A stretch of 64,000 nt of DNA, taken from the NCBI GenBank assembly GCA_036867785.1, contig CP145427.1:186001-250000 (forward strand), in the 5' to 3' direction. Below are positions 24,767-54,865 of this stretch, in pieces. A model generated the notes under the pieces. That model was given only the letters and a program-made list of their open reading frames with translations, had not been told where the DNA came from and searched no databases. Both the position numbers and the translations under genes were made by a program. The stretch comes from Plasmodiophora brassicae (lineage: Eukaryota). Numbering within the stretch: the first letter of the stretch is position 1; each line of letters begins with the position of its first letter.

Positions 24767-27721
24767 TCAGATGATGGCAAAGACAGCGAAGGTGAGGCAC
24801 AGAGCAGCGGACACGATGTCGTGTGGTCTGCTACCGCTGCTAGGGTCCTGGTGGGGTGACGAGGCGATGGGAGCGGGCCCATCCAGCTGACGCGCAAGGA
24901 CCCTGGTGGCCACCGCTGCGGTTGCACCGGCAGTAGCGGCAGCGATGGCCACCTCGCCGACAGCCGACAGCGGATGTTGCCGACGGTGAGCCTCGCCGAC
25001 AGGATTCGGCTTGCGAGCGTGCGTCGCCAAGAAGCACAATCCAGCGAGGGCCAGCGGCGGCTGCAGGATACCGGTCACCAGGCTCCTGGCGCGATGTAGG
25101 CCGGATGACCCGGCAGGCCTGCTAACGTGGACAGTCATGTTCCGAATCTGTCGCAGGATTGCCTGGCCCTCTCGGGGTCCTGTCACCAACTCGAGGCACC
25201 TCTTACGGGACGCGTCACCGGCGCCAGCGTCCATGATAGAGAACGACACCGGTGTCATCCCGTCATGGTCGCGAGCGCTGACGAGCCGATTCGCCAGGTC
25301 TGGCCCGGCCTTCGTCAGGATGCGCTCCACAACGGTAGGAAATCCGCCTCGGCTGGCCAGATGCAGGGGCGAGCGACCGCGATCATCGATAGCTGTCAGG
25401 TCAGCGCCCTGGTCGATGAGGAACAGGGCAATTTCCTCGTTGCAGGTCGAGCGATCGAGAAGGGCCATGTGCAACGCCGTGTGCCCAGGGGAGCCGGCAG
25501 GCACCACCTGCGGGATCAACGTGTTCACAGCTTGGCGGACGGCGACGTTGATCGCGGCAGGGTCGTGACGGTGACTCGCCAGGTACGCCGCTGTGATGCC
25601 GACGTCGACAGCAGCGATGAACGAGACTGGATCAATGGCTGCCTGCCAGCGTTGGACGAGTGTATCGCGGATGGCGCGCAGACGCTCAGCGATCGGTAAG
25701 CTCCGGTTCCAGTAGAGATCCCAGGAGCACCACGACAGGGCGGCCATTCCATTCACGTCGGTGCGATTGACGTGCGCGGGTTTGCTAGAGCCGATGGAAT
25801 CGACTTGGCTGGGCAGCCCATAACGGACCGCCATGTGAAGCAGATCGAGTTCGGGATACGGGTGCGCGTCGAACAGATAGTAGGCCAAGGCATCCCACAG
25901 GTCTAGACCAACGGCACGCCGGGTGTCAGTGGCTTTCAGATTGTCGAACACGGTACCAAACGGGGTGTCGCCGTTGTCGTCCGTCCAGGCATGCCAGTAC
26001 GGGTACTGACTACAGACCCTTCTGACGAGAGTCACGTTGCACGCTCGGATACCTTGAAACAGGTCCACGCGCGCAGTTGAACGGGAAGGCGTGATCGGTG
26101 GACGTTTCAGGAGCCGCCGTTTCATCTCCTCGAAGGCTGGCGAACTTGTGTCTAACGTGTCGGCGTACGGCTGCCCTTTCGGAGTGTTAGGGCTGGCTCC
26201 ATGGTTGAGCAGGAGGTCGACAATGTCCTTGTAGTAGGCGCCCTCGGGGCGCTGCAGGCCTCGTTTGAGTGCCATCGATAACGGCGTCTCGCCGTTCTCG
26301 TCGGCCTTGTCGATCTGGGTGTCTGGGTGCAACACCAGCTTGCGAACCAACTCAACAGAGAGGCCGTCGTGGATCGCGTCGATCAGGACGTATCTGTCAC
26401 CGCGGTGCCGCCAGTGAGCATTGATGTCAGCGCCAGCATCAATCAGGGCCATCGCGACATCGTCGTTTGCTCCACGCACCGCCACCCACAGGGCCGTTGC
26501 ACCATCTCCGTCCGCATCAACGATCTTGGCCAGGTCGTTGTCGTCATCGAAGCTTATGCGGGTGCTGAGGAGTCGCTTGACGTTGCTCGATCGTTCCAGA
26601 TACAACTCAGTGAGCGTCACCGAAGACGAAGCAAAGAACGCCAGCGGGGCCCTACTGGCCCAGATGTCAGCGCCCGTTTTGATCAGCAGGTCCATATTGT
26701 CTCGCACGCGTTCCTTGTTCAAACGTTTGACAATGCGTTGACGCTTCCCATGGCGACTTGACGTCAGGCTGATGTCGAACACGTCCGGCAGCACATGTGC
26801 AGCGCAGAAGTCCAGGGCGGTCGTACCCATGTGTAGGTCATCGATTTGGGCAGGGGTCCGATCCAGTATGATCTGTAGCAGATCCCGTGGGCCTGCAACG
26901 GCTGCGGCATGAAGTGGAGGGATCCGCGAGACACTGCCGGGAAGTGATGCATTATCGGACCATTCGGTGTAGAGGTTCCTGCTGACATCCGAGTACTCGT
27001 GAGCGGCAAAGAGTCGAGCCATGTCCAGGAAGATTTTGTCGACCGCCCCATCGTTTGGGTTCGTGTCGCTGTTGATGTATACCTGAGAGAGCGTTAACTG
27101 GAATGGGGATATGGTATCCTCATCATTGCACGTCCAGTTCATCCACCTGGCATTGTCCTTGCAAATGGCCACGATTAGTGGCACATCTGCATGCATAAAG
27201 GCATTGAACAGGTCCTCCTCAACGGCCATTGCACGGATCAACGCTATGCGTCTCCCCTCGTCTTCTGACCAGAACAAACGGTCCACGGTTTTCAAGTCGA
27301 AGATGTAGTTCCGCTCAAGTGCTCGTTCGTCGTAGGGGGATCCGGCATCCACTAAGGCGCTGATAATCCTCAGCAGGCGGGCGTCGCGGTCGTCGTCGGC
27401 GTCTTTGGCCTTCCTGTAGGTGGAGACAGCGACGCTAAGTGCAGATTGCCCAGCGCTGTTCTGCCTGCACACGTCGGCACCGCCTCGCGCGAGAATCTCG
27501 TCAACCACGACTTCGTCCGCTTGCGCACAGGCGATGTGCAATTTGGTGTTGCCGTTGGCATCAACGAAATCGGCGGATGTCCCGTTCAACGAGGTGGTAC
27601 GCGCGTGTGCAGGCCGCCCGCGCAATTTCAGCTTTGCAGCAATGTTCCCGGCGGAGGCCGAAGACGTGAGCGCTGCGACGCTGACGATGAGAGCGAGAGC
27701 GGCCATCTGCCCACCCACCAT
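24767..27721 (-). CDS. Large intronless ankyrin-repeat protein with signal peptide and C-terminal hydrophobic anchor
   Basis: MAALALIVSVAALTSSASA leader; dispersed ankyrin repeats (GNTKLHIA, GATALWVA, GETPLSMA, GRSPLHLA); ends IVSAALCLTFAVFAII*. Confidence 0.85.
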   Translation of the reverse strand: MVGGQMAALALIVSVAALTSSASAGNIAAKLKLRGRPAHARTTSLNGTSADFVDANGNTKLHIACAQADEVVVDEILARGGADVCRQNSAGQSALSVAVSTYRKAKDADDDRDARLLRIISALVDAGSPYDERALERNYIFDLKTVDRLFWSEDEGRRIALIRAMAVEEDLFNAFMHADVPLIVAICKDNARWMNWTCNDEDTISPFQLTLSQVYINSDTNPNDGAVDKIFLDMARLFAAHEYSDVSRNLYTEWSDNASLPGSVSRIPPLHAAAVAGPRDLLQIILDRTPAQIDDLHMGTTALDFCAAHVLPDVFDISLTSSRHGKRQRIVKRLNKERVRDNMDLLIKTGADIWASRAPLAFFASSSVTLTELYLERSSNVKRLLSTRISFDDDNDLAKIVDADGDGATALWVAVRGANDDVAMALIDAGADINAHWRHRGDRYVLIDAIHDGLSVELVRKLVLHPDTQIDKADENGETPLSMALKRGLQRPEGAYYKDIVDLLLNHGASPNTPKGQPYADTLDTSSPAFEEMKRRLLKRPPITPSRSTARVDLFQGIRACNVTLVRRVCSQYPYWHAWTDDNGDTPFGTVFDNLKATDTRRAVGLDLWDALAYYLFDAHPYPELDLLHMAVRYGLPSQVDSIGSSKPAHVNRTDVNGMAALSWCSWDLYWNRSLPIAERLRAIRDTLVQRWQAAIDPVSFIAAVDVGITAAYLASHRHDPAAINVAVRQAVNTLIPQVVPAGSPGHTALHMALLDRSTCNEEIALFLIDQGADLTAIDDRGRSPLHLASRGGFPTVVERILTKAGPDLANRLVSARDHDGMTPVSFSIMDAGAGDASRKRCLELVTGPREGQAILRQIRNMTVHVSRPAGSSGLHRARSLVTGILQPPLALAGLCFLATHARKPNPVGEAHRRQHPLSAVGEVAIAAATAGATAAVATRVLARQLDGPAPIASSPHQDPSSGSRPHDIVSAALCLTFAVFAII

Positions 27722-28040
27722 ATCAGTTCCGCAAGCGATCAACCCGTGTTCAGCGCGCACAGACGGCAACCAGTGCCGCCCACGTCCAACTCCAGGCCGC
27801 AAGCTGCCGCCCTTGGAAGGCGGCTGCCGCCGTCCCGAAATAGCGCGGGCGCCCAGAGGGGCCCCAAAACCGCGCCCGCAGTGCCGTCGCGGAATCGCCC
27901 ACCAGAGCGTACCTACTCTCAGCTTCCCGCAAGGTGACTGGTACTCTGAAAAACCGGCGCCGAGCAGACCTGCACTGTCTTCCATTATGACCTCGGTCGT
28001 CCAACGGAGAAGGTCGACGCACACGTTTAGAGATTCGGCT

Positions 28041-29278
28041 TCAGCAAAGCACCGCGGAGTACACGTTTCCGTTCGGGACGATACTGCCGATGGTGCTCTT
28101 GAGGTAGCAGGTGTTCCAGGCGAACGCGTATCCGATGCATCCCGGGGTCTGCCCGCATAGCGGCTGACAATCGTTGCGGTTGCTGGCCGGCTTGGTTGTG
28201 AGATCGCCGCCGAACAGGTCCACGTAGTCATAGTAGCGCCAGCCCCAGACCGAGCACGGGTGCGCGCTGTCAGTGTCGACGTCGAACGAGAACTTCTCCG
28301 TCCCGGTGTTGACGAATAGCCCGAAGTGTTTCTCCGTCTCCGCGGGCCCCTTCCACGATTCGTCGAACGCCTCGAATAGGTACAGGTCCTTTACCTTGCC
28401 GGATGTCCTGGCGAAGGTCACAGCCGTGCTCGTGTACTGCTGCGCGTTGTCGACGGACGCGTAGGAACCGCCAGTCGTTGGCCAACCTGTTTCGCCGACG
28501 ATGATTGGGAGGGAGCCTGGCGCTCCGATCTTGTTCAGGGCGGCCCGAACGGCGTCAATCACGTTCGACAGAATCGATGGGTTCGGACCTCGACCCAGGG
28601 CCGGATCCGCCAGAGCGTTGTTGCCACTGTAGACGAGCGCGAAGTACGGATACACGTTGATGCTGAACTCAGGAACGCTCGGGACGAATTGCCGAACAAG
28701 GTCGACAATTTCGGGGTCGAAGTTGGCGTTCTGTGGAGGATACGTGTTCTGCAGGCTGGCCTCTAGATCACACAGGAATGAGGGCAACGACCAGGGGCTG
28801 TCGGAACCGACTGACCGCTCAGCGGAACGATAACCTTCGTGCTCAGGCCGTTGCTCGAGACCAGCTGGCGGACCTTGTTATAGGCCGGGATCAGGTACGG
28901 GCGTGTCTGGGCCCGCGTGGCGGCGCCGTTGAACGGCTCGTTGCTGACGGCGATGGAGCGAACGGTTCGGCGACGCAGGGCTTGGACGATCAGACCTTGG
29001 TATCCAGGATCGTAGGCAGCAGCAGACAGACGGTCATTCGGGATCGCGACCGTGATCTCGACGGCAGCCTTGGCGTAGACACGATCGACGGCGTCGAGGA
29101 AGCCGGAGTCGATGTTGTACGTTTTGATCAACGAGACGCCGCGGTTCCGAAGGCGCTGGAGCTGGCTGTCGTACGAGAGAGCGTCGGGAAACAGGCCAAT
29201 GTCGACCCCGACACGGGCCTCGCCAATAGCAGCGATCACCAGGATCAGACACAGCGACAGCCCGTTACGTACGCCCAT
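28041..29278 (-). CDS. Secreted GH17 beta-1,3-glucanase with C-terminal PAN/Apple module
   Basis: Signal peptide; IAVSNEP and IIVGETGWPT catalytic motifs; LFEAFDESWK..EKHFGLF; C-terminal DYVDLFGGDL..DCQPLCGQTPGCIGYAFAWNTCYLK. Intron 28763-28815. Confidence 0.92.
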
Positions 29279-29916: not shown

Positions 29917-30640
29917 CACCTTCAGCTGTCGAACCCGTTTCGCCAGGTCCGCCTGGCTGGCCGACTTCAGCTTTGGCTTCTTCGCGTCGTCGTCCCGCCG
30001 AACCAGTGTGGCCATTCGAACCGTCTCCTGGGTCCGCCTGCCTTTTTCAAGCCCCGATTCCCGGTCATCGGCAACGTTGACACCGTCATGGTTTGACGTG
30101 GCGCTAATCAGTTCCTGACCCTTGCTCATTGTTCTCCTCCTTCAACTATGCGTCCATGTTGTAGCAGTAATGGTCGGAAAGCTCCACGTCAAAGCATGAC
30201 GGTGTTGTTGCCGATGACCGGCGACGTTGGCTTCGGGGGGCCACGTCGACGTGGCACCCCCGCAACGACGTTGTTGCCGCTGCAACCTCGGCCATGGACA
30301 AACTGAAAAGGCATCGTCACACGCTGAAGTACCGTCCGCGCTCGGAGTCTGGGTGTATGGTCGAGTCGGACGGAACTCTGCATGGTCAGTTCTGCATGTT
30401 GAAACCTGAGCCGTCCAATGCATCCCGTGGACCGGTATGATCTGCGGCGGTGCAGCAGCATGGCAGTCGCTGGCGCCACACGACACACACACACACACAC
30501 AGACGTCGTTGCGTTTCCAGGATCATTCTTCGATCGTCCAGTGTGAGAGAACAGGGATTGAGGCTCCGATCCGCTGAGCTCCTGAACGCAAACAGCCAGT
30601 TCGACGGTACCAAAGCACCATGGATGACGCGTACGAGCGG
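29655..30640 (+). repeat. Degenerate direct duplicate of ~36058-37870
   Basis: Shared blocks: cccacgtctggacgtcaat, atgaacagct, ttcgttcgtc..gcacgcg..ccgtttcagtgc, and gcagcagcatgg..cacacagacgtcgttgcgttt..ccgctgagctcctgaacg..ttcgacggta.caaagcacca. Confidence 0.8.
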
Positions 30641-31225
30641 TCAGGTGCAGGCCTACTTCTGCATGTGAAACGGAAACGGACGCGCAGGGTGTGCGACGGA
30701 CGGACGCGACAAACGCTTGCTTGGGCGGCGCCGGCCAGCGATGCGAATGGGTGCGCCGTAATTTGCAAGGGCATTCCGCAACGCCACCGTTTCGCAAATT
30801 CGATCCAGAGTGGCTTCTTCGAGTCGACCTCCTTATCCTCTGTGGCACCCGCGCTGCTGGGAACGAGGGGGCGATCTCAGGACGGCGGGAGGTACCTCAG
30901 TAGGCGCGATTGGGATCGATGCTGCTAACGTCGACGTCAGCGGTGCGACGATGTCGTCGGTAGCAGCGGATGATGGCACGATCGTGTCGACAGCGGGCGC
31001 AAGGTTCGACGCAGGGTCGGATGATCACTGGGAAAAATTCGTTGTCAAATTCTGGTCAACATGACAGGCGACGCCAATTTCCCGTCAATCTGGATGTGCA
31101 TGCAGTTACCGCAACCGGTTACAGGATCCAATCCCGGCCCTGGCTGAGGGCCTGGTCGAAGTATTTTTCGCCAACGTTTCCTACTGTGACGAGCATCGAC
31201 TCTCGTTGACTCTTCGCCTCCTTCT

Positions 31226-31345
31226 CGTCTCCTTTGCGCAGCCTTTTGTGACTGGTTCTCGTCTCCTTTTTGAAAAGGGAGCTCCTCGAGCTCCTTTTTG
31301 AAAAAGGAGTTGAGAACAGTGGAACGTCACAGATGAAGGAGACGA
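31226..31345. repeat. Nested hairpin / cruciform
   Basis: 22-bp stem 31263-31284 / 31288-31309 (20/22 complementary, 3-nt loop), extended by gttctc/gagaac, tgtgac/gtcaca and tcgtctcctt/aaggagacga. Confidence 0.8.
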
Positions 31346-31349
31346 AATT

Positions 31350-31859
31350 ATGTCGACCCAACATCACTTCGACCAGGCTCTGATTGCAAGGCGAACTACG
31401 CACTCCGCAACGTGCGCGGGTGTCAGGTCAAGTCGTCGTGGGGACGTCGATCTGGAGGAGACGTCGTCAGCCGATCATGAGGCCATGGGAGACTACTTCT
31501 GGCAGGAATGGGCGAGGCACGCCGAGGGTGACGTCGACTCAAAGTCGCCCGACATGAGTGACGTCGATGGCAACTATGCTCTTCGGGAATGGTTGGACTC
31601 CAGCGATGACGATGACGGCGAGGCATATCCGCCGAGCGATGACGACGTAAACGAGTATTTCCTGCGTCAATGGATCCGACGACGCGACAATGAAGGTGCC
31701 GGTGGCTATGGCGCCGTCCCGCCAGAATTCGAACTGGAAAGACCTGACGATGCACCCCACGTGAAGCCATTCGACATTCGACCTGCACTACTCGGCATGG
31801 CAGCTCGTGAAAACACAGATTCGTTCGATGATTGGCGTCGGGATAACGATGCCGCATAG
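31350..31859 (+). CDS. Acidic hypothetical ORF with three YxxxxW repeats
   Basis: 169-aa ORF containing DYFWQEW, NYALREW and EYFLRQW separated by acidic spacers. Lies in a degenerate region. Confidence 0.4.
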   Translation: MSTQHHFDQALIARRTTHSATCAGVRSSRRGDVDLEETSSADHEAMGDYFWQEWARHAEGDVDSKSPDMSDVDGNYALREWLDSSDDDDGEAYPPSDDDVNEYFLRQWIRRRDNEGAGGYGAVPPEFELERPDDAPHVKPFDIRPALLGMAARENTDSFDDWRRDNDAA

Positions 31860-32540
31860 ATCGCCGAGCTTGCACTTTACGATCACCTTCTGGAACATAT
31901 GAGTTCACGCCTGGTCCCTGTGGCCGTTGACGAGCTGGACACGGACGCCGTCGATGTTTTTGACGAGGCCATTCGTGCCAAGCTGTCCTACGAGGCTGTG
32001 GACAGTCAGCTGAAGATTAGCTGCCATCGATCGAAGAAACTGGTTGATAAGCATAACTCACTGGTGAGGGACACTGTGGAAGCATTCTTAAATCGCCGAC
32101 GGTCCGGGTGGTCAAGTTGTGGTCGTCCGAGGTCGTTGGTGAAGCTATTGTTCGCCGTGCCAACCCAAGACGAGGGTATCGCGCGATCGTGGAGAAGCAC
32201 GTCCGCAAATCCATTGACAGTTTCATCGCCTCTGAGCGCGAACGGTAAGACGTGATACGGTGTCCAGACATTGCCTGATGCCTATGTTGCTCATAACTTT
32301 ATTGTAGCGGCCTCGTCGACGGTCAGCACCCGACTCTCGACTTGCTGAATGACTTTCAGCATCGATTGATACCACCGGAGTCCCTTGTTGACGAAAGACG
32401 CCCACTGGGGGAGGCCGTCTTTCATGGTGCAACAAGGGCCCACCCTAACCGTCCGTGTGCCTAAGTCGTTTTTGACGTCCATTATATCTAAGCGTAAACG
32501 TCGTGCCTCAGAAGACACATTGTGACCTGTCGCGGGTCCT

Positions 32541-32950
32541 GGCCATTCACTTCAGCGGCCAAAACATGGCCTTGAAGGTCTGGTTCATCTTTACGTAAGC
32601 TACTTTGGCGACAGCATGGTCCCTAATGCTGACAGTGCTGTCTGTAGAAATGACAGAGGCATGGCGGTCGAGTAAACACCAGACGCAGGCGCAATGTTCC
32701 CCGTACAGCGACAAGCTGGCCGACATGTTGAAAGCATGTCGCTTCCACGACGTGTTGTGCGTCGTGCAAAGACCCGGGGACGTTATCTACATGCCTCCCA
32801 GCATGATGCATGCAGTGTATACTGCGTATGCACCTGGGACCCCTCCGGGCTAGCAGTTCTGCCTGGCGGGTGGTTACCTGTTCTGTACTGCACAGGACCC
32901 ACCCTACATGGTTCGGTTTCATGGCGAACGTCCGCAATGCTGCCCTGAAC
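32541..32950 (+). pseudogene. JmjC-domain gene fragment (left arm)
   Basis: LKVWFIF and VVQRPGDVIYMPPSMMHAVYT (JmjC QxPGDxxYxPxxxxHxV). In-frame TAG at 32851; splice phases do not join. Confidence 0.65.
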
Positions 32951-33499
32951 GATGGAACGAACAGAAGCTGGCGTCGTACGTGCTGCCCATCGGCGCCCGA
33001 GATTTCACCGAGAACCGCCACGGCACATGGCGAAAATCCTGTCCTGTGCTGAACCTTGGCCAGAGGTCGTTCAACAGGTGCAGAGGGAGGGCACGCGCCG
33101 CAATTTGTCTAGGGAGGTTTAATCAGGATAAAATAGCATGGCTTAGAGGCCGATCTTTCAACCATGCCGCGGCGAATTGACCGCAAGAACTCCTTTCTTT
33201 CGTGGTGCTTACGGCCGAAGGGCACGCGCCGCACGGAAGCACCACGAAAGAAAGGAGTTCTTGCGGTCAATTCGCCGCGGCATGGTCGAATGATCGGCCT
33301 CTAAGACATGCTATGTTATCCTGATTAAACCTCCCTAGACAAATTGCGGCGCGTGCCCTCCCTCTGCACCTGTTGAACGACCTCTGGCCAAGGTTCAGCA
33401 CAGGACAGGATTTTCGCCATGTGCCGTCGGCGGTTCTCGGTGAAATCTCGGGCGCCGATGGGCAGCACGTACGACGCCAGCTTCTGTTCGTTCCATCGT

Positions 33500-33895
33500 T
33501 CAGGGCAGCATTGCGGACATTCGCCATGAAACCGAACCATGTAGGGTGGGTCCTGTGCAGTACAGAACAGGTAACCACCCGCCAGGCAGAACTGCTAGCC
33601 CGGAGGGGTCCCAGGTGCATACGCAGTATACACTGCATGCATCATGCTGGGAGGCATGTAGATAACGTCCCCGGGTCTTTGCACGTCGTGGAAGCGACAT
33701 GCTTTCAACATGTCGGCCAGCTTGTCGCTGTACGGGGAACATTGCGCCTGCGTCTGGTGTTTACTCGACCGCCATGCCTCTGTCATTTCTACAGACAGCA
33801 CTGTCAGCATTAGGGACCATGCTGTAGCCAAAGTAGCTTACGTAAAGATGAACCAGACCTTCAAGGCCATGTTTTGGTCGCTGAAGTGAATGGCC
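33500..33895 (-). pseudogene. JmjC-domain gene fragment (right arm)
   Basis: Mirror copy with the same stop, plus a 12-bp deletion that shortens DVLCVVQ to DVQ. Confidence 0.65.
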
Positions 33896-34821
33896 AGGAC
33901 CCGCGACAGGTCACAATGTGTCTTCTGAGGCACGACGTTTACGCTTAGATATAATGGACGTCAAAAACGACTTAGGCACACGGACGGTTAGGGTGGGCCC
34001 TTGTTGCACCATGAAAGACGGCCTCCCCCAGAGGGCGTCTTTCGTCAACAAGGGACTCCGGTGGTATCAATCGATGCTGAAGGTCATTCAGCAAGTCGAG
34101 AGTCGGGTGCTGACCGTCGACGAGGCCGCTACAATAAAGTTATGAGCAATATAGGCATCAGGCAATGTCTGGACACCGTATCACGTCTTACCGTTCGCGC
34201 TCAGAGGCGATGAAACTGGCAATGGATTTGCGGACGTGCTTCTCCACGATCGCGCGATACCCTCGTCTTGGGTTGACACGGCGAGCAATAGCTTCACCAA
34301 CGACCTCGGACGACCACAACTTGACCACCCGGACCGTCGGCGATTTTTCAGATGACGAGCACTTCCACCCGAAGCCGAAAGCGGCCGGCTTCTCCAGAAA
34401 TTCGGCAGTCGTGCTCTCGAGGTGTCACCGCATTTGACAATATCGTAGAAGCTTCATGGTTTGATCATGCCGGGCGTGAAGCCGATGGATCGAAGACGGC
34501 ACGAACGAGGCATCGCGGATCATAATGGCCATCGAGCTCGACGTGTTCATGTCAAGACGACAGGAAGAACCTCACGTCGCCCCAGACGAAACCGACGCGC
34601 TGGGGTGTTAACCACCGATGACTGAAGAATCGTCGCCCTGCATCGAGTCCCAGACACATTCTGTAAGAACGAACGATCCCGATTGGGAACTCGTAGTTTC
34701 CCATGGCCTGGCTGCGAACACTAAACATCCGCATCTCATTCATACGCGTCAAATCCAAACGATCCGATGGGGACCCAAAGTTGTCAACGACCAGGGCTCC
34801 CATCTCATTCATATTGGTGAC

Positions 34822-34878: not shown

Positions 34879-35040
34879 CTGAACCGGGACACGGCACTGA
34901 TCCGGTCGGGAGCGTACCACAACCTTCTTGATTTGTCTCGAATCTGTTGCAGGCGGCCGTTCTAGAACGACGTTCTGTATCCTGCAGCAGTCGGCCCAAC
35001 GATGTCTTATTTCGTCCCTGGACGTCATTCAGTAATTATC

Positions 35041-36055
35041 ATGCATTGGTTGGCGTTGACGACGTCTCTGTTCATCGTGGTCGTTGCCGAGGCACGTATC
35101 GGGGTCGACATTGGCCTGTTTCCGGATGCGCTGTCGTATGACGAACAGCTACTTCGTCTTCGAAACCACGGCGTGTCGCTGATCAAGACGTTCAACCTCG
35201 ACCCAGGGTTTCTGGACGCTGTTGAACGAGTCTACGCCAATGCCCCAGTCGAAGTCACCATTGCGATCCCAAACGACCGCCTCGCCGCTGCTGTCAGCGA
35301 CCCCGGGTACCAGAATGTCATCGTGCAAGCCCTGCGCCGCCGAACGGTGCGCTGGATCGCCATCAGCAACGAGCCGTTCCACGATACCGCCTCTCGTGCT
35401 CAAACACGTCCGTACCTGATCGCGGCATACAATCAGGTGCGCCAGCTAGTCTCCAGCAATGGACTGGCCACGAAGGTCATCATCCCTTTAAGCGGTCAGA
35501 CATACCGGATATGTATCGGCGCCTGAAGGTTTGCCGTTGACGTCCTGAATGGTTGGTCTAGAGGCATCGCTAGCGAACACGTATCCTCCTCAGAACGCCA
35601 TCTTCGATCCCGAGATTGTCGACCTCGTCCAGCAATTCGTGCCAAGTCTTCCTGCGTTCAGCATCAACGTCTACCCGTTTTTCGCTCTGGGCGGTAACGG
35701 CGCCCTGCTGGATCCGGCCCTGGGTCGGGGCCCGAATCCATCGATACTGTCGAACGTGCTGGACGCCGTCCGCGCCGCCTTGGGCAAAGTCGGTGCGCCC
35801 GGGTCGCTCCCGATCATCGTCGGGGAAACTGGATGGCCGACAGCAGGCGGGCCGCTCGCGTCCATCGACAACGCTCGGCAGTACGTCAGCCATGCCGTCA
35901 GTGTCGCCAGGGCATCCAGCAAGGTCCAGGACCTGTACCTGTTCGAGGCGTTCGACGAGTCCTGGAAAGGACCCGCGGAAACCGAGAGGCACTTTGGGCT
36001 GTTCTACAACACCGGCGCCGAGAAGTTCCCTTTCGACATCGCCACCGGAGCGTAA
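35041..36055 (+). CDS. Secreted GH17 beta-1,3-glucanase without PAN module
   Basis: Signal peptide MHWLALTTSLFIVVVAEA; AISNEP; IIVGETGWPT. Intron 35495-35561 at the same position as in the paralog. Confidence 0.92.
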
Positions 36056-36195: not shown

Positions 36196-37341
36196 CTAGC
36201 GGATCAGGAACAGGCCGCCAACGGTCAGGACGAAGGCAGTGACCATCCAGAGCGTCGAGACACTGCTGACGCTGCTCGACGACGATGTGTCGGCGGCGCA
36301 CACCAGGTTCGCATCGTTGTGGCAGTCAGACAGGAGGACGCATGTGTGGGCCATCGCCGGGAGCATGTCCACCCAGGCCTTGCAGCCCGACGTGGACGCG
36401 CACGACGACTTGCAATCCGTCAACGTGGTCTGCGCGACGATGCAGGTACGAGTCGGGTCGCAGGAACGGTACAGGTTGCACGCGTGCCCCATGCCCGTCG
36501 TCGTCATCGTAAACGCCTTGCAACCAGCGGTATTCGCACACGATGCGGCACACGAGGTCCCGGCACCGGTCTGCGCGATCAGGTCAGGTGCCTGAGTCGG
36601 GTGCGTCGCAACGGGGACCGGCGTCGGTGATGGAGCTGGCGCCGACGGTGCCGCCGTCTTCATGCAGGAAATTGACGGATCGAGGCAGTTCGACAGGAAG
36701 TTGCACCCATGGCCCATTCCGGTCGACGTGACGACGATAGCTTGGCAGGTCGGCGAGTTCTGGCAGGCGGCGGAACAGTCGTACCCGGCACCCACACCCC
36801 CGACAATGCTGGTCTGGCCTGCATCCGGCGTAGAGTACAGGCTGCAGGAATGGCCCATACCAGTGGACGAGTACGTGAACGACTTGCATTGCACGTTCTT
36901 CACACAGGCCACTGCACACGATGGCGTCTCAGCGGCGCCCGTCGTCCCCAGCAGCACTGGCACTGAGGTTGGCGCCGGCGTCAGGCAACCGACGGACGGA
37001 TCCAGACAGTTGGACAGCAAGATGCAGGCGTGGCTCATTCCAGTGGATTTGACGAAGACGGCAGTGCAGGACGGCGTGTTCCGGCAGGCGACGGCACAGT
37101 CCGCTGTGGCACCCGCGCTGCCCACAATGCTGGTCTGGCCTTCACCCGGCGTTGAGTACAGGTTGCAGGCGTGGCCCATGCCCGTTGACGAGTACGTGAA
37201 CGACTGGCACTGGACGTTCGACGCACAGTCCATTGCACACGACGTCGATGCCGCCCCGGTGGTCCCTAGCAGCGCCGAGTGGCCCATGCGGCTCAACAGG
37301 GCAGCAGCCATCATCATCATCGTGCTCGTGGTCGGCGACAT
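36196..37341 (-). CDS. Surface protein with six PAN/Apple-like TGMGH repeats and C-terminal TM/GPI signal
   Basis: Leader MSPTTSTMMMMAAALLS; repeats CxxxCxxxxxCxxFxxxxTGMGHxCxL; Ser-rich stalk; LWMVTAFVLTVGGLFLIR*. Confidence 0.85.
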   Translation of the reverse strand: MSPTTSTMMMMAAALLSRMGHSALLGTTGAASTSCAMDCASNVQCQSFTYSSTGMGHACNLYSTPGEGQTSIVGSAGATADCAVACRNTPSCTAVFVKSTGMSHACILLSNCLDPSVGCLTPAPTSVPVLLGTTGAAETPSCAVACVKNVQCKSFTYSSTGMGHSCSLYSTPDAGQTSIVGGVGAGYDCSAACQNSPTCQAIVVTSTGMGHGCNFLSNCLDPSISCMKTAAPSAPAPSPTPVPVATHPTQAPDLIAQTGAGTSCAASCANTAGCKAFTMTTTGMGHACNLYRSCDPTRTCIVAQTTLTDCKSSCASTSGCKAWVDMLPAMAHTCVLLSDCHNDANLVCAADTSSSSSVSSVSTLWMVTAFVLTVGGLFLIR

Positions 37342-37434
37342 CGTCTCTTGTTCGTCGGCGGGTTTGCAGAATGAAAGAGAGCGAGCTCTGCTTCGTCGCC
37401 TCGACGGGTGGAGTTGGATCGGCGGCATGGTTGA

Positions 37435-37555
37435 GTCACGGCACGCGCCCTTACAAATTTCGCGCCTCTCTAGATCGTTGTCAGGCACGCGCCTCGCTAG
37501 ATCGTTCGTCAGGCACGCGCCGCGCTCCGCTTCGTTCGTCAGGCACGCGTCCGTT
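37435..37555. promoter_or_regulatory. Four copies of gtca(c)ggcacgcg upstream of the PAN-repeat gene
   Basis: Copies near 37435, 37480, 37508 and 37538. A related tcaggcacgtgcc lies at ~38735 upstream of the paralog. Confidence 0.45.
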
Positions 37556-38000
37556 TCAGTGCACTACATCCATGTACACGAATGTGTGGCCGCGGGGCAC
37601 GTGCCCGTCGCGTGACACGCGTTGATCCACGGTCAGGGTGAATGTCACTGGACCGGGAGTTCGTATCCGACGGGCACACGGCGCCGTCTGTGGCAGTGCA
37701 GCAGCATGGCGGTCGCTGTCGCCTCACGACGTTGGGCAACCACACAGACGTCGTTGCGTTTTCAGGAACATTCTTCGACCGTTCAGTTTGGGAGGACAGG
37801 GGTTGAACCTCCGCTGAGCTCCTGAACGTAAACAGCCTGTTCGACGGTAACAAAGCACCATTGATGCAGAGCGGGCGGGTGGGCGTCTGTTCACCTGGAC
37901 TGCACGAGGTAACCAGCGTTTCTCCAAACCCGGTCCGGAGTGGGTCGTTCGCTGGCGAACGCCTCGAAGGTATGTGCACATTGACATGGTTGATGTTTAA

Positions 38001-42832: not shown

Positions 42833-43204
42833 GATCCAAAATGACGCGACCGCCGCGCCACCAAAAAATCGTGCAGATCGTAATGGCGCGCCCCTCCTTT
42901 TTTTTCGGGGAGCAGCGGGGCCCCCGGAGTGGCGCAGCAGCAGACTCAGAGCCAGATCGTCAGTGGTCTGGCTGTCGTTCGCACTGCTGTCCAAGCGAGG
43001 GCCAGATTCTGGGTCCTGTATTCGACGGTGAGCGCCTGCACCAGCGGCTCGTCGTGTGAAGAGCGTTGGCTTACCCGGCGAACGGTGGACGTTCGAGGAC
43101 ACGCGTATTCGTAAGTTATCGTCGACGGTTGGAGGCATAGACCATGGACCTTTGTGCCAGGTATTGGCCAGAAGAGGCGCCGCGCCCACGAGAAAATAGG
43201 GTAG

Positions 43205-43777
43205 AGGAGGTACCACAACAGCAACGGTGTCCGCAAGTACGAGAAGAAGGTGCCGACCCAGATCCTGTGGGATCTCAAAATGTTGAGCTACGTTGTTCCG
43301 TCAGTCCTGATAATGACCATACGACGTGTAATGATGATTTCATTTGGTCCTACAAGGTGAAGCGCGGGTCGGTGTCCTCCTGGATATTTGATACCGTTTG
43401 AAGATCACAGGAGCAACGGTGACGTATCTAACAGTGAAGTGGTCCAGAGGACGGTTGTATCTTACCCAGCGATTGACTGGGGAAGCCTCGTCGCCCTTCT
43501 CCAGTCAATCGCTTGGTAAGGTACTTGGCAACCGTTCTCTTGACCACTTCGTTGTTGAATACGTCACCGTTGCTCCTGTGATCTTCAAACTGGTATCGAA
43601 TGTCCAGGAGGACATCGACCAGCGCTTCACCTTGTAGGACCAAATGAAATCATCATTAGGTCAGTATCAGGACTGACGGAATAACGTAGGACATACCCAC
43701 AATATTGAGATCCCTCAGGATCTGGGTCGGCGCCTTCTGGTACTTGCTGACATCAGTGCTCTTGTGGTGCCTCTTCA
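43205..43777. repeat. ~570-bp imperfect palindrome of an intron-bearing gene fragment
   Basis: Arms ~43205-43487 and ~43495-43777. For example gaagatcacaggagcaacggtgacgtat pairs with atacgtcaccgttgctcctgtgatcttc. Loop ~8-10 nt. Confidence 0.92.
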
Positions 43778-53254: not shown

Positions 53255-54865
53255 ATGATCATGGTCATCGTCGGGCTCAGTGGCCGTGTTGATGCGTTGA
53301 TCATCACGCTGCGCTCGGCCAGCGACGCTGACGTCGACTATGCCGTGGACGCCTGGACGGCGGCGTCCCATTCCAAAGTGCTCGACGGTTTGATCGGCGA
53401 CCTTGGCGATCGCGTGGGTCGCGTTCAGGTGCCGAACATTGCCAGTAGCGAGTTGCAGCTGATCGTGGAGTTCATGAACGCAACCGCTGTCGAGGAGGTT
53501 CTGTCACATTCGCAGTTCTGCGCCAGGATCCCCCTGATGGATGATCCCGGTTTATAGGTCGACCTCGCCTTGGAATGGGTCGAGAACAGGTTGGCGGCGT
53601 TAACGGGCGATACGCTGTGCCGACTGTTGATCGCCGCTGATTTCCTCGATATGCGGTCGCTCTTGGTCGCTGTCGCGTCCACGAAACGTGCACGGGACGA
53701 CATAGCTATGATTGCCGCGACAATGCACGCGGACGTTCTTCATTACGTCATGGGCATCGTCCGGCTCTGTCACTTCGCACGAATGGACGGCCAGAGATCG
53801 CTATGGCGTCGGCTCCGGTACGCTCTCGTCGTCCAGGACGGGGTCGGCTTCGTCAATCAAGCGCCGTGGGTCGCCCACCTGAACTTGCTGAACTGGGCCG
53901 TCGCGTACAAGGAGGAACTGATCGTCCAGCTGCTGGTCAGCCTGCCGGGGATCGATGTGAACGCCTGCAGCTGCAGCGCGACGTTCAAGAGGACGCCCCT
54001 GCACGAGGCCGTCTTCACCGGCCAGGCGCGCGTCGTTGAGATGCTGTTACGTGCTCGCGGGATCGACGTGAATGCGCGCGACACGACCAACAGGACCGCA
54101 TTGCACTGGGTCAGAAACCCCAACAGCCACGTCGTAATCAACCTGCTGCTGAACGCGTCTGGCGTTGACGTCAGCGCGAGAGACATGTACGAACGCACGC
54201 CGCTGCACGATTTAGTGTACAGGGGCACCCTTCAGGCTGTCGAGGCGCTGCTACAAATCGGCGATGTCGACATCAACGCCCGTGACGTGCACGAAATGAC
54301 GCCTCTACATGAGGCCGTGTTTTCCAGAGATGGGGACATCGAATTGCTGCTCAAGCCGCCGGGAATCCGTCATGCCATCGTGGCGTTGCTGCTGAAGGCC
54401 CCCAGGATCGATGTCAATGCCCGTGATCAGCATCAGATGACTCCTCTGCATAGGGCGATCCAGGCTGGTCGCATTCGCACTGTCCAGTTACTGCTGATGG
54501 CCCCTGGTGTCGATGTCAATGCGCGCGATGGTCAGCAGCAGACCCCTCTGCACAAGGCCACGATGCGCTCCCGCGCGCACGTTGAGCTGTTGTTAAGGGT
54601 CCCCGGCATCGACGTCAACGCGGCCGACTCGCTCCAGATGACACCGCTCCACTTGGCGACTGCACTGAACCGCCCCGATATCGTGGAGCTGTTAGTGGCG
54701 CTACCCTCGATCAGCATCAATGTTGAAGACAGTTTTCAGAGGACGCCCTTGGACATTGCCAAGGCAAGTCGCTATCAACCAATCGTATCGCTGCTGAAGC
54801 CTCGCCACGGGACGCTGAAGAGGCTCATGAAGAGGCTCACCTCACTTCGCTGGCTGCTGTGGTAA
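53255..54865 (+). CDS. Predicted secreted SKP1/BTB-like + ankyrin-repeat protein (paralog B)
   Basis: Hydrophobic leader; ITLRSASD..VQVPNIASSELQLIVEF; intron 53498-53557 at the same site as paralog A; LCRLLIAADFLDM; ~9 ankyrin repeats. Start could be the upstream ATG at ~53207. Confidence 0.85.

Follow-up and report, generated by a model that had tools for sequence, protein, structure and literature searches.

A palindromic JmjC-like pseudogene behind a transposon end is a probable hairpin source of phased siRNAs in Plasmodiophora brassicae

Palindromic pseudogene joined to a transposon end

We analyzed a 64,000-nt stretch of the Plasmodiophora brassicae genome (assembly GCA_036867785.1, contig CP145427.1, positions 186,001 to 250,000; hereafter the window, whose own numbering is used below) and in it a 2.25-kb palindrome, which we propose to be a hairpin-RNA locus producing small interfering RNAs (siRNAs). 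The assembly comprises 25.3 Mb in 20 contigs, of which C19 carries the window, and close protein matches of the window bear the name P. brassicae. The left arm (32090..33213, 1124 nt, plus strand) contains a fragment of a JmjC-like pseudogene in sense orientation, truncated at both ends, and the right arm (33234..34346, 1113 nt, minus strand) is an inverted copy of the same fragment, represented in another assembly by gene model P0003 (SPR01867.1). Alignment of the arms and folding placed the fold-back point at 33214..33233, a loop of 20 nt. The original prediction, made from the letters alone, had described 1.1-kb arms with about a dozen substitutions and two indels. We confirmed this description, finding 98.7% identity over 1112 paired positions, 14 substitutions and, in the right arm, a deletion of 12 nt and an insertion of 1 nt. 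The predicted spacer of 26 nt is obtained when the last mismatch and two pairs are excluded; the strict loop is 20 nt. In RNA folding, the palindrome apex reached -211 kcal/mol (z = -28.7 versus shuffles). The locus has the long genomic inverted repeat, capable of forming a stem, by which hairpin-RNA siRNA loci are recognized.

Pfam searches with the arm translation returned JmjC_2 (E = 0.0014) and JmjC (E = 0.014), both below the curated cut-off; against the 22 bits required by the JmjC profile, the arm scored 18.6 and a sister fragment 21.4. We take H-x-D/E ... H to be the defining motif of JmjC 2-oxoglutarate/Fe(II) dioxygenases. This metal triad is present in the arm (H-C-D at 32518-32526, H at 32809-32811), its parts lying in different reading frames owing to a frameshift, and a relative, judged by its features and modelled fold, clustered among JmjC proteins. 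A phmmer search gave 10 hits at E ≤ 0.001, comprising three P. brassicae fragments and seven distant proteins of 33-51% identity; the distant relatives include proteins of Spongospora and Phytophthora, and one of them, P0007, is fused to an NDC10_II domain, which is presumably related to Crypton transposons. A profile search for the wider family returned three proteins, all from its own alignment, and a scan of viral contigs with P0010 found no relative.

Four GT..AG introns were recognized on the plus strand of the left arm from joints in contigs of two RNA-like sequencing runs, X15 and X18, which come from two studies; neither of the two DNA runs, X3 and X7, contained such joints. Intron 1 (32245..32307, 63 nt) is predicted from the X18 joint 32243/34129 at the mirror position. 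The joint of intron 2 (32451..32511, 61 nt) was found in X15 and mirrored in X18, that of intron 3 (32595..32647, 53 nt) in both X15 and X18, and that of intron 4 (32911..32964, 54 nt) in X18, with a mirror joint (33483/33538) in X15; the joints of introns 2 and 3 were specifically absent from X3 and X7. Three-frame translation of the spliced arm revealed no intact JmjC reading frame. Two frameshifts, near 32400 and 32650, and a premature exonic TAG (32851..32853, mirrored at 33595-33597) are common to both arms, and the sites of these shared lesions are absent from the frame-changing differences between the arms. The shared lesions suggest that the gene was dead before the palindrome formed, unless conversion copied them. 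The original prediction had proposed this order of events from a stop codon present in both arms; the order is supported, whereas the first apparent in-frame stop, the TAA at 32596, belongs to the donor of intron 3 and is not a lesion.

DNA and protein searches and a Pfam JmjC scan of the assembly yielded only fragments or unrelated JmjC genes and no intact family member, so that the intact parent gene to which the original prediction pointed was not recovered; these searches ran exon by exon, giving lower bounds, and could have missed an intact copy. The four other family loci (C19:553-557 kb, C6:592 kb, C6:1196 kb and C2:1923 kb) are all fragments, and three of them have fold-backs of their own, each centred elsewhere and measuring 497 nt (94%), 220 nt (77%) and 226 nt (79%). 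At C19:553281-557100 (L049 and L050), the JmjC-like gene is interrupted by inserted DNA. The 3′ part of this gene makes up the 497-nt hairpin, in which 222 bases pair perfectly; an inverted duplicate of 215 nt occurs 2.9 kb off, and retrotransposon remnants flank the locus on either side. As to which arm of the palindrome is the original, neither flank aligned convincingly with, or continued, the upstream sequence common to two JmjC-like paralogs.

The palindrome recurs in independent DNA. In run X7, the arm formed one contig covering exactly 32090-33210 at a depth of 91.5, compared with 50.8 in the flank, which shows that two arm copies were collapsed into it (1.8-fold depth). At the right junction, contigs of both X3 and X7 begin at 34317, and alleles of both arms were seen in other runs. 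The minus-strand gene model P0003 has its start within the right flank and crosses the right junction, with 100% identity to the right arm and 89% to the left. The locus has the same length in the isolate whose published contigs we compared (PMC13547706). None of the listed contigs of the runs covers both arms, and the extra base at 33428 is absent from one DNA run. The view of the original prediction that the palindrome is not a simple read fold-back artefact agrees with X3, X7 and the other assembly. Right-arm alleles also occur in other isolates' data, and their recurrence there, with that of the junction, suggests that the 1.3% divergence of the arms predates the split of the sampled isolates; gene conversion between the arms could also mask their age. 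The palindrome is young only in a relative sense, its right-arm alleles being already shared with other isolates.

The left arm is joined to a 5′ fragment of an old CACTA/EnSpm-like DNA transposon (31026..32089, plus strand), a junction that the original prediction overlooked. The fragment begins with CACTG and contains the degenerate start of a transposase-like open reading frame (ORF). It has 26 matches in the genome, several reaching the arm boundary; its terminus was aligned with other copies, and several copies of the family run on past the junction into a transposase-like gene. Positions 31761-32084 are 35% identical to P0013, a full relative bearing DUF4218. We assign the CACTA label on the assumption that CACTG ends and DUF4218 mark this family; by this definition, the CACT(A/G) terminus, the dispersed copies and the domain on P0013 fit. 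Neither a matching 3′ terminus nor a target-site duplication was found, and because the window contains a single terminus-like match, the left flank is regarded as a 5′ fragment only. For an exon of the family that lies farther downstream, the genome contains 42 matches, some of them in groups with equal scores. Inside the transposon end lies a multi-copy insert resembling a miniature inverted-repeat transposable element (MITE), with an internal inverted repeat (31154..31385); its matches, 93-94% on C8 and C17 and weaker on C7, are confined to this stretch.

CACTA-like copies elsewhere were also recorded. A copy on C20 near 479 kb (L024:2169-2335) carries a small inverted duplication that starts within about 10 nt of the position at which the left arm is joined in the window, just past a probable intron donor; this position is possibly a hotspot. 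A young subfamily on C2, C3, C6 and C7 (L136-L140), whose compared pairs are 99.97-100% identical, has no long hairpins and no match to the leader of the locus, and is possibly still active.

Transcripts and small RNAs from the palindrome

P. brassicae is reported to have phased 21-nt RNAs, two Argonautes and a Drosha-like enzyme, PbDRL, that dices long double-stranded RNA (dsRNA); no Dicer or RNA-dependent RNA polymerase (RdRP) is reported, and the dsRNA source of its siRNAs "remains unknown" (PMC13547706). In the assembly, we found two Argonaute genes with Piwi domains, which are adjacent at C12:592510-596413, each with an open frame of >850 codons. A search of the genome for the RdRP family had no match and is uninformative, as its control matched nowhere either.

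Two entries in the tables of that study map to the palindrome. Mature Pb-miR077 (Table S8) lies at 33150..33170 on the plus strand and is the left-arm allele, with no mismatch to the left arm and two to the right; the loop lies at the middle of its annotated precursor, which spans about 33140-33307. The phased 21-nt siRNA locus PHAS21-315 (Table S6; Ctg_5:222627-225553, P = 4.4e-10) corresponds to 31420..34346, its end coinciding with the final base of the right arm. The offset between Ctg_5 and C19 (5207) was anchored by the sequences of miR075, miR073 and miR077. By sequence and coordinates, the two entries are the same locus, but they are given as unrelated table rows (PMC13547706). Unlike a canonical microRNA (miRNA) gene, in which a short precursor gives one dominant duplex, Pb-miR077 sits at the apex of a 1.1-kb stem within a 2.9-kb phased locus. 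In the main text of the paper, "inverted" and "JmjC" do not occur and "palindrom" occurs once, in a figure of one miRNA region. The locus is accordingly known already as two supplement rows; neither its nature as a palindromic pseudogene nor a role of palindromes as the missing dsRNA source was found in print in literature searches and by these words in the paper's main text.

The palindrome is also transcribed, as the spliced joints in both RNA-like runs and in neither DNA run indicate. RNA contigs cross the left junction at a depth of 250-313, compared with 4.6-5.8 in the right flank; contig depth has no value for ranking genes, and the contrast is a weak hint. Together with splicing on the sense strand, cover of the left junction hints at a plus-strand transcript starting in the transposon end, which would probably serve as promoter and leader of the hairpin transcript. 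That this is a genuine locus giving rise to 21-nt RNAs is in our view highly probable, and in both transcription and siRNA production the original prediction was upheld.

Palindromes and phased siRNA loci along C19

We scanned the whole of C19 (722,821 bases) for palindromes and compared them with the published phased loci (PHAS entries). C19 corresponds to Ctg_5 (first 310 kb) followed by Ctg_19 reversed (PMC13547706). The match to Ctg_19, hinted at by palindrome spacing, was positioned by arithmetic from the contig ends with no offset fitted, and the sequences of miR224 and miR225 bore it out. For PHAS21-317 and PHAS21-318, an offset of 17,277 was chosen within the range set by miR078; four miRNAs beyond 407 kb of Ctg_5 were not found on C19, and PHAS21-319 onward were dropped. 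The comparison covers one chromosome of twenty and two different isolates, and palindromes map reads twice. The two assemblies differ at the join, which lies between about 293 and 346 kb and represents either a translocation or an assembly difference; the paper's isolate has about 12 kb extra between 220 and 290 kb.

The scan yielded 30 palindromes totalling 18,218 bases, or 2.5% of the DNA. At least half of the length of 17 of the 21 placed PHAS entries overlapped a palindrome (random mean 0.49, maximum 4 in 5000 trials). PHAS21-316 misses palindromes under both possible offsets, which makes the count 17/22, and counting PHAS21-319 to 321 as misses makes it 17/25. When arm pairs were merged, 14 of 19 phased clusters lay in palindromes (random mean 0.42, maximum 5 in 10,000). 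Conversely, 13 of the 16 palindromes with arms of at least 150 nt carried a PHAS locus. We propose that the phased siRNA of C19 comes mainly from palindromes.

Arm identities of the C19 palindromes range from about 79 to 100%, and none of 48 translated frames from the other palindromes reached the Pfam cut-off. For two of three other palindromes searched genome-wide, a relative elsewhere also had both-strand matches. Fold-back arms of at least 75 nt were found at 9 of 14 old-repeat loci (7/11 CACTA-like, 2/3 MITE-like) and at three of the five other JmjC-like fragment loci, at none of five young near-identical transposon copies or five host-gene loci, and in 18 of 219 chromosome tiles. Such clustering on decayed repeats could result either from break-prone DNA or from selective retention.

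The window contains a second fold-back (43204-43776; 573 nt, about 90% arm identity, 10-nt loop) that has no PHAS entry and is the sole palindrome of the 30 with a strong G-U bias (14 vs 2, P = 0.004). The likely site of PHAS21-316 (58520-59412 with offset 5207) is not a palindrome; a transposase fragment resembling DDE_Tnp_4 (58670-59119), whose match at E = 2e-4 falls short of the cut-off, overlaps it.

Proposed origin, targets and competing explanations

We consider it rather probable that the palindrome is a hairpin-RNA siRNA locus with a spent defence role; its structure, lesions, splicing and small RNAs and the chromosome-wide coincidence were all observed. A break or stalled fork repaired by fold-back copying would have produced a head-to-head dimer of the already dead JmjC-like fragment, joined to the old CACTA-like 5′ end; the structure is evident, and the mechanism is what we infer from it. 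The transposon promoter would then drive a spliced transcript across the whole palindrome, from the left arm over the loop into the right. Of this, the splicing and RNA contigs across the left junction were seen directly, while promoter, strand and read-through of the loop are presumed. The RNA would fold into a stem some 0.9 kb long that bulges at the introns, and PbDRL, an enzyme suggested by the published description (PMC13547706), would cut it into phased 21-nt RNAs for the two Argonautes. Such palindromes would substitute for the missing RdRP as the main phased-siRNA source on C19. Finally, the siRNAs would be a relic of defence against the JmjC-like family, probably once mobile, of which no intact copy is left; they may still pair with their own transcript and, via the leader, with old CACTA-like copies.

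Long hairpins derived from gene copies yield phased RNAs of about 21 nt as Drosophila hairpin RNAs and from inverted-duplication MIRNA genes in plants, where they regulate intact paralogs; unlike in those systems, no intact paralog was found here. The closest likeness is to Naumovozyma (Saccharomyces) castellii, in which genomic inverted repeats likewise give hairpin transcripts supplying most siRNA, palindromic loci accounting for 74.1% of 22-23-nt reads in the wild type; the account given there implies that budding-yeast RNA interference (RNAi) needs no RdRP (10.1101/2019.12.12.873604). The yeast uses Dicer and makes 22-23-nt products, whereas a Drosha-like enzyme and 21-nt products are reported for P. 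brassicae. The stem here also differs from the N. castellii loci in consisting of a JmjC-like pseudogene that is spliced and follows the end of a DNA transposon. Maize Mu killer also combines an inverted duplication at a truncated DNA transposon, a borrowed promoter, a long hairpin and siRNA (PMC3440606). In Mu killer, however, the transposon forms the stem and the target is active; here the transposon supplies the leader, the stem is not transposase, and no active target was found.

Possible targets were sought with 1104 21-mers from the arms, compared with 10 candidate regions, and 650 from the leader. In seven of eight tested old CACTA-like copies, 9-64 of the leader 21-mers matched perfectly. 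At one mismatch, 0-3 arm 21-mers matched each JmjC-like locus (1-3 in three paralogous loci). None of these regions was found to contain a target of the Mu killer type, intact, expressed and almost perfectly complementary to the stem.

Several observations weigh against our proposal. None of the 1104 arm 21-mers matched the other JmjC-like loci or three Pfam-JmjC loci perfectly, no leader 21-mer (0/650) came within three mismatches of two young transposon copies, and the five predicted targets of miR077 score 101-109 against a threshold of 100 (PMC13547706). The stem has no G-U bias (4 vs 3) and only 1 of the 30 C19 palindromes is biased at P < 0.01, so that pairing shows no sign of selection. 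A present-day task of the siRNAs is doubtful, given no target, weak miR077 predictions and no wobble bias, and carriage of the JmjC-like gene by a transposon is a conjecture. RNA contigs end at 33117 and 33162, none crossing the loop; that X15 and X18 are RNA is a guess, and run contigs reveal neither strand nor expression level. The small-RNA evidence consists of published locus tables and not of reads, which would give arm coverage, strand and abundance, and phasing calls may be favoured by palindromes, which map each read to both strands. A hairpin by itself leaves unexplained why PHAS21-315 takes in 670 nt of the leader, beyond the stem. Along C19, 5 of 19 phased clusters are not palindromic, with no hairpin on the chromosome matching any of the five, and a sister JmjC-like hairpin (C19:553494-553990) has no PHAS entry.

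The palindrome could instead be a neutral repair scar, which we regard as unlikely though deserving of weight. Fold-backs would form at breaks in decayed repeats, be diced via promoter read-through and persist since nothing removes them, their siRNAs never having been selected. The failure to find a target, the lack of wobble bias in 29 of 30 palindromes, the death of the gene before folding, which left little to silence, and a leader without match to young near-identical transposon copies would all be expected of such a scar. Less readily explained are independent fold-backs with different centres recurring in the same small families, such as the JmjC-like one, the both-strand matches in relatives of two of the three palindromes searched, and the retention of arms of very different ages (about 79-100% identity); break-prone repeat DNA could also give this pattern of recurrence and retention.

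A more far-reaching interpretation, offered tentatively and in our judgment improbable, is that P. brassicae replaced RdRP by a DNA-level memory. Mobile elements and their cargo would be folded into palindromes, giving several hundred hairpin genes diced by the Drosha-like enzyme, a heritable archive comparable in role to clusters of PIWI-interacting RNAs; the JmjC-like protein would be a transposon-borne anti-silencing enzyme, all copies of which were disabled, mostly by independent fold-backs. The enrichment of fold-backs on old repeats and the JmjC-like family, their recurrence with different centres and the overlap with PHAS loci point in this direction, while a directed mechanism and the mobility and substrate of the JmjC-like protein are conjecture.

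It is quite improbable that the dsRNA is bimolecular, arising by convergent transcription from the transposon promoter and the right flank and not from an intramolecular hairpin. Budding yeast has known convergent precursors (10.1101/2019.12.12.873604), the minus-strand model P0003 has its start within the right flank, and the phased locus includes the non-palindromic leader. The miR077 precursor, however, is centred on the loop, the phased locus stops exactly at the end of the right arm, and the low RNA depth of the right flank compared with the left junction is a weak hint in the same direction. Convergent transcription may still account for the leader, antisense read-through from the right being one option for its siRNAs.

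According to the original prediction, the siRNAs could act in trans, silencing intact JmjC genes, or affect chromatin at the flanking GH17 genes; we see very little prospect for this. In its favour, siRNAs are made, three paralogous loci lie within one mismatch of 1-3 arm 21-mers, other isolates might have an intact copy or the exon-wise search might have missed one, and the GH17 genes are only 0.7 and 2.9 kb distant. Those three paralogs, however, are fragments, as is the fourth family locus, no arm 21-mer came within two mismatches of the three Pfam-JmjC loci or within three of either GH17 gene (0/1104), and the best relatives outside Plasmodiophora are 33-51% identical. A search of the assembly for C5 DNA methylase (PF00145) also had no match, a weak test, being exon-wise and with a control that matched in 9 of 14 prokaryotes. 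Least credible of all is an assembly or read fold-back artefact, which the missing spanning contig and the base lacking at 33428 in one DNA run might suggest but which the collapsed-arm depth, the alleles of both arms in other runs, the right junction in another assembly and the equal length in a further isolate (PMC13547706) virtually eliminate.

Both flanking genes appear to be bystanders. The left one (28044..29226, minus strand) encodes GH17 and PAN domains (Glyco_hydro_17, E = 9e-25), and the right one (35030..36045, plus strand) is its inverted 77% paralog by blastn, although none of its three distinct ORF pieces matches Pfam by itself. Because this pair (28273-29226 and 35084-36045) is inverted and a 186-nt direct repeat of 83% identity (30441-30626 and 37687-37866) lies near it, an older segmental duplication probably frames the transposon end and the palindrome. 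The window also contains a PAN-repeat gene (36199-37563), three ankyrin-repeat genes (4438-5778, 24770-28390 and 53558-54862) and a 17-nt tandem array (18286-18451).

What supplies the long dsRNA in the absence of RdRP is the one stated gap in the account of this crop parasite's RNAi published in 2026 (PMC13547706). This locus and the 14 of 19 phased clusters on C19 point to genomic palindromes as that source, a claim open to immediate test on existing data. The solution of budding yeast would thereby be shown in a Dicer-less rhizarian. Some annotated P. brassicae miRNAs may be apices of long siRNA hairpins, so that their predicted target lists call for caution. The recurrence also raises the question of whether decayed mobile DNA folds back again and again by accident or as a defence. 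For control of clubroot by RNAi, palindromes would identify the natural substrates of the pathway.

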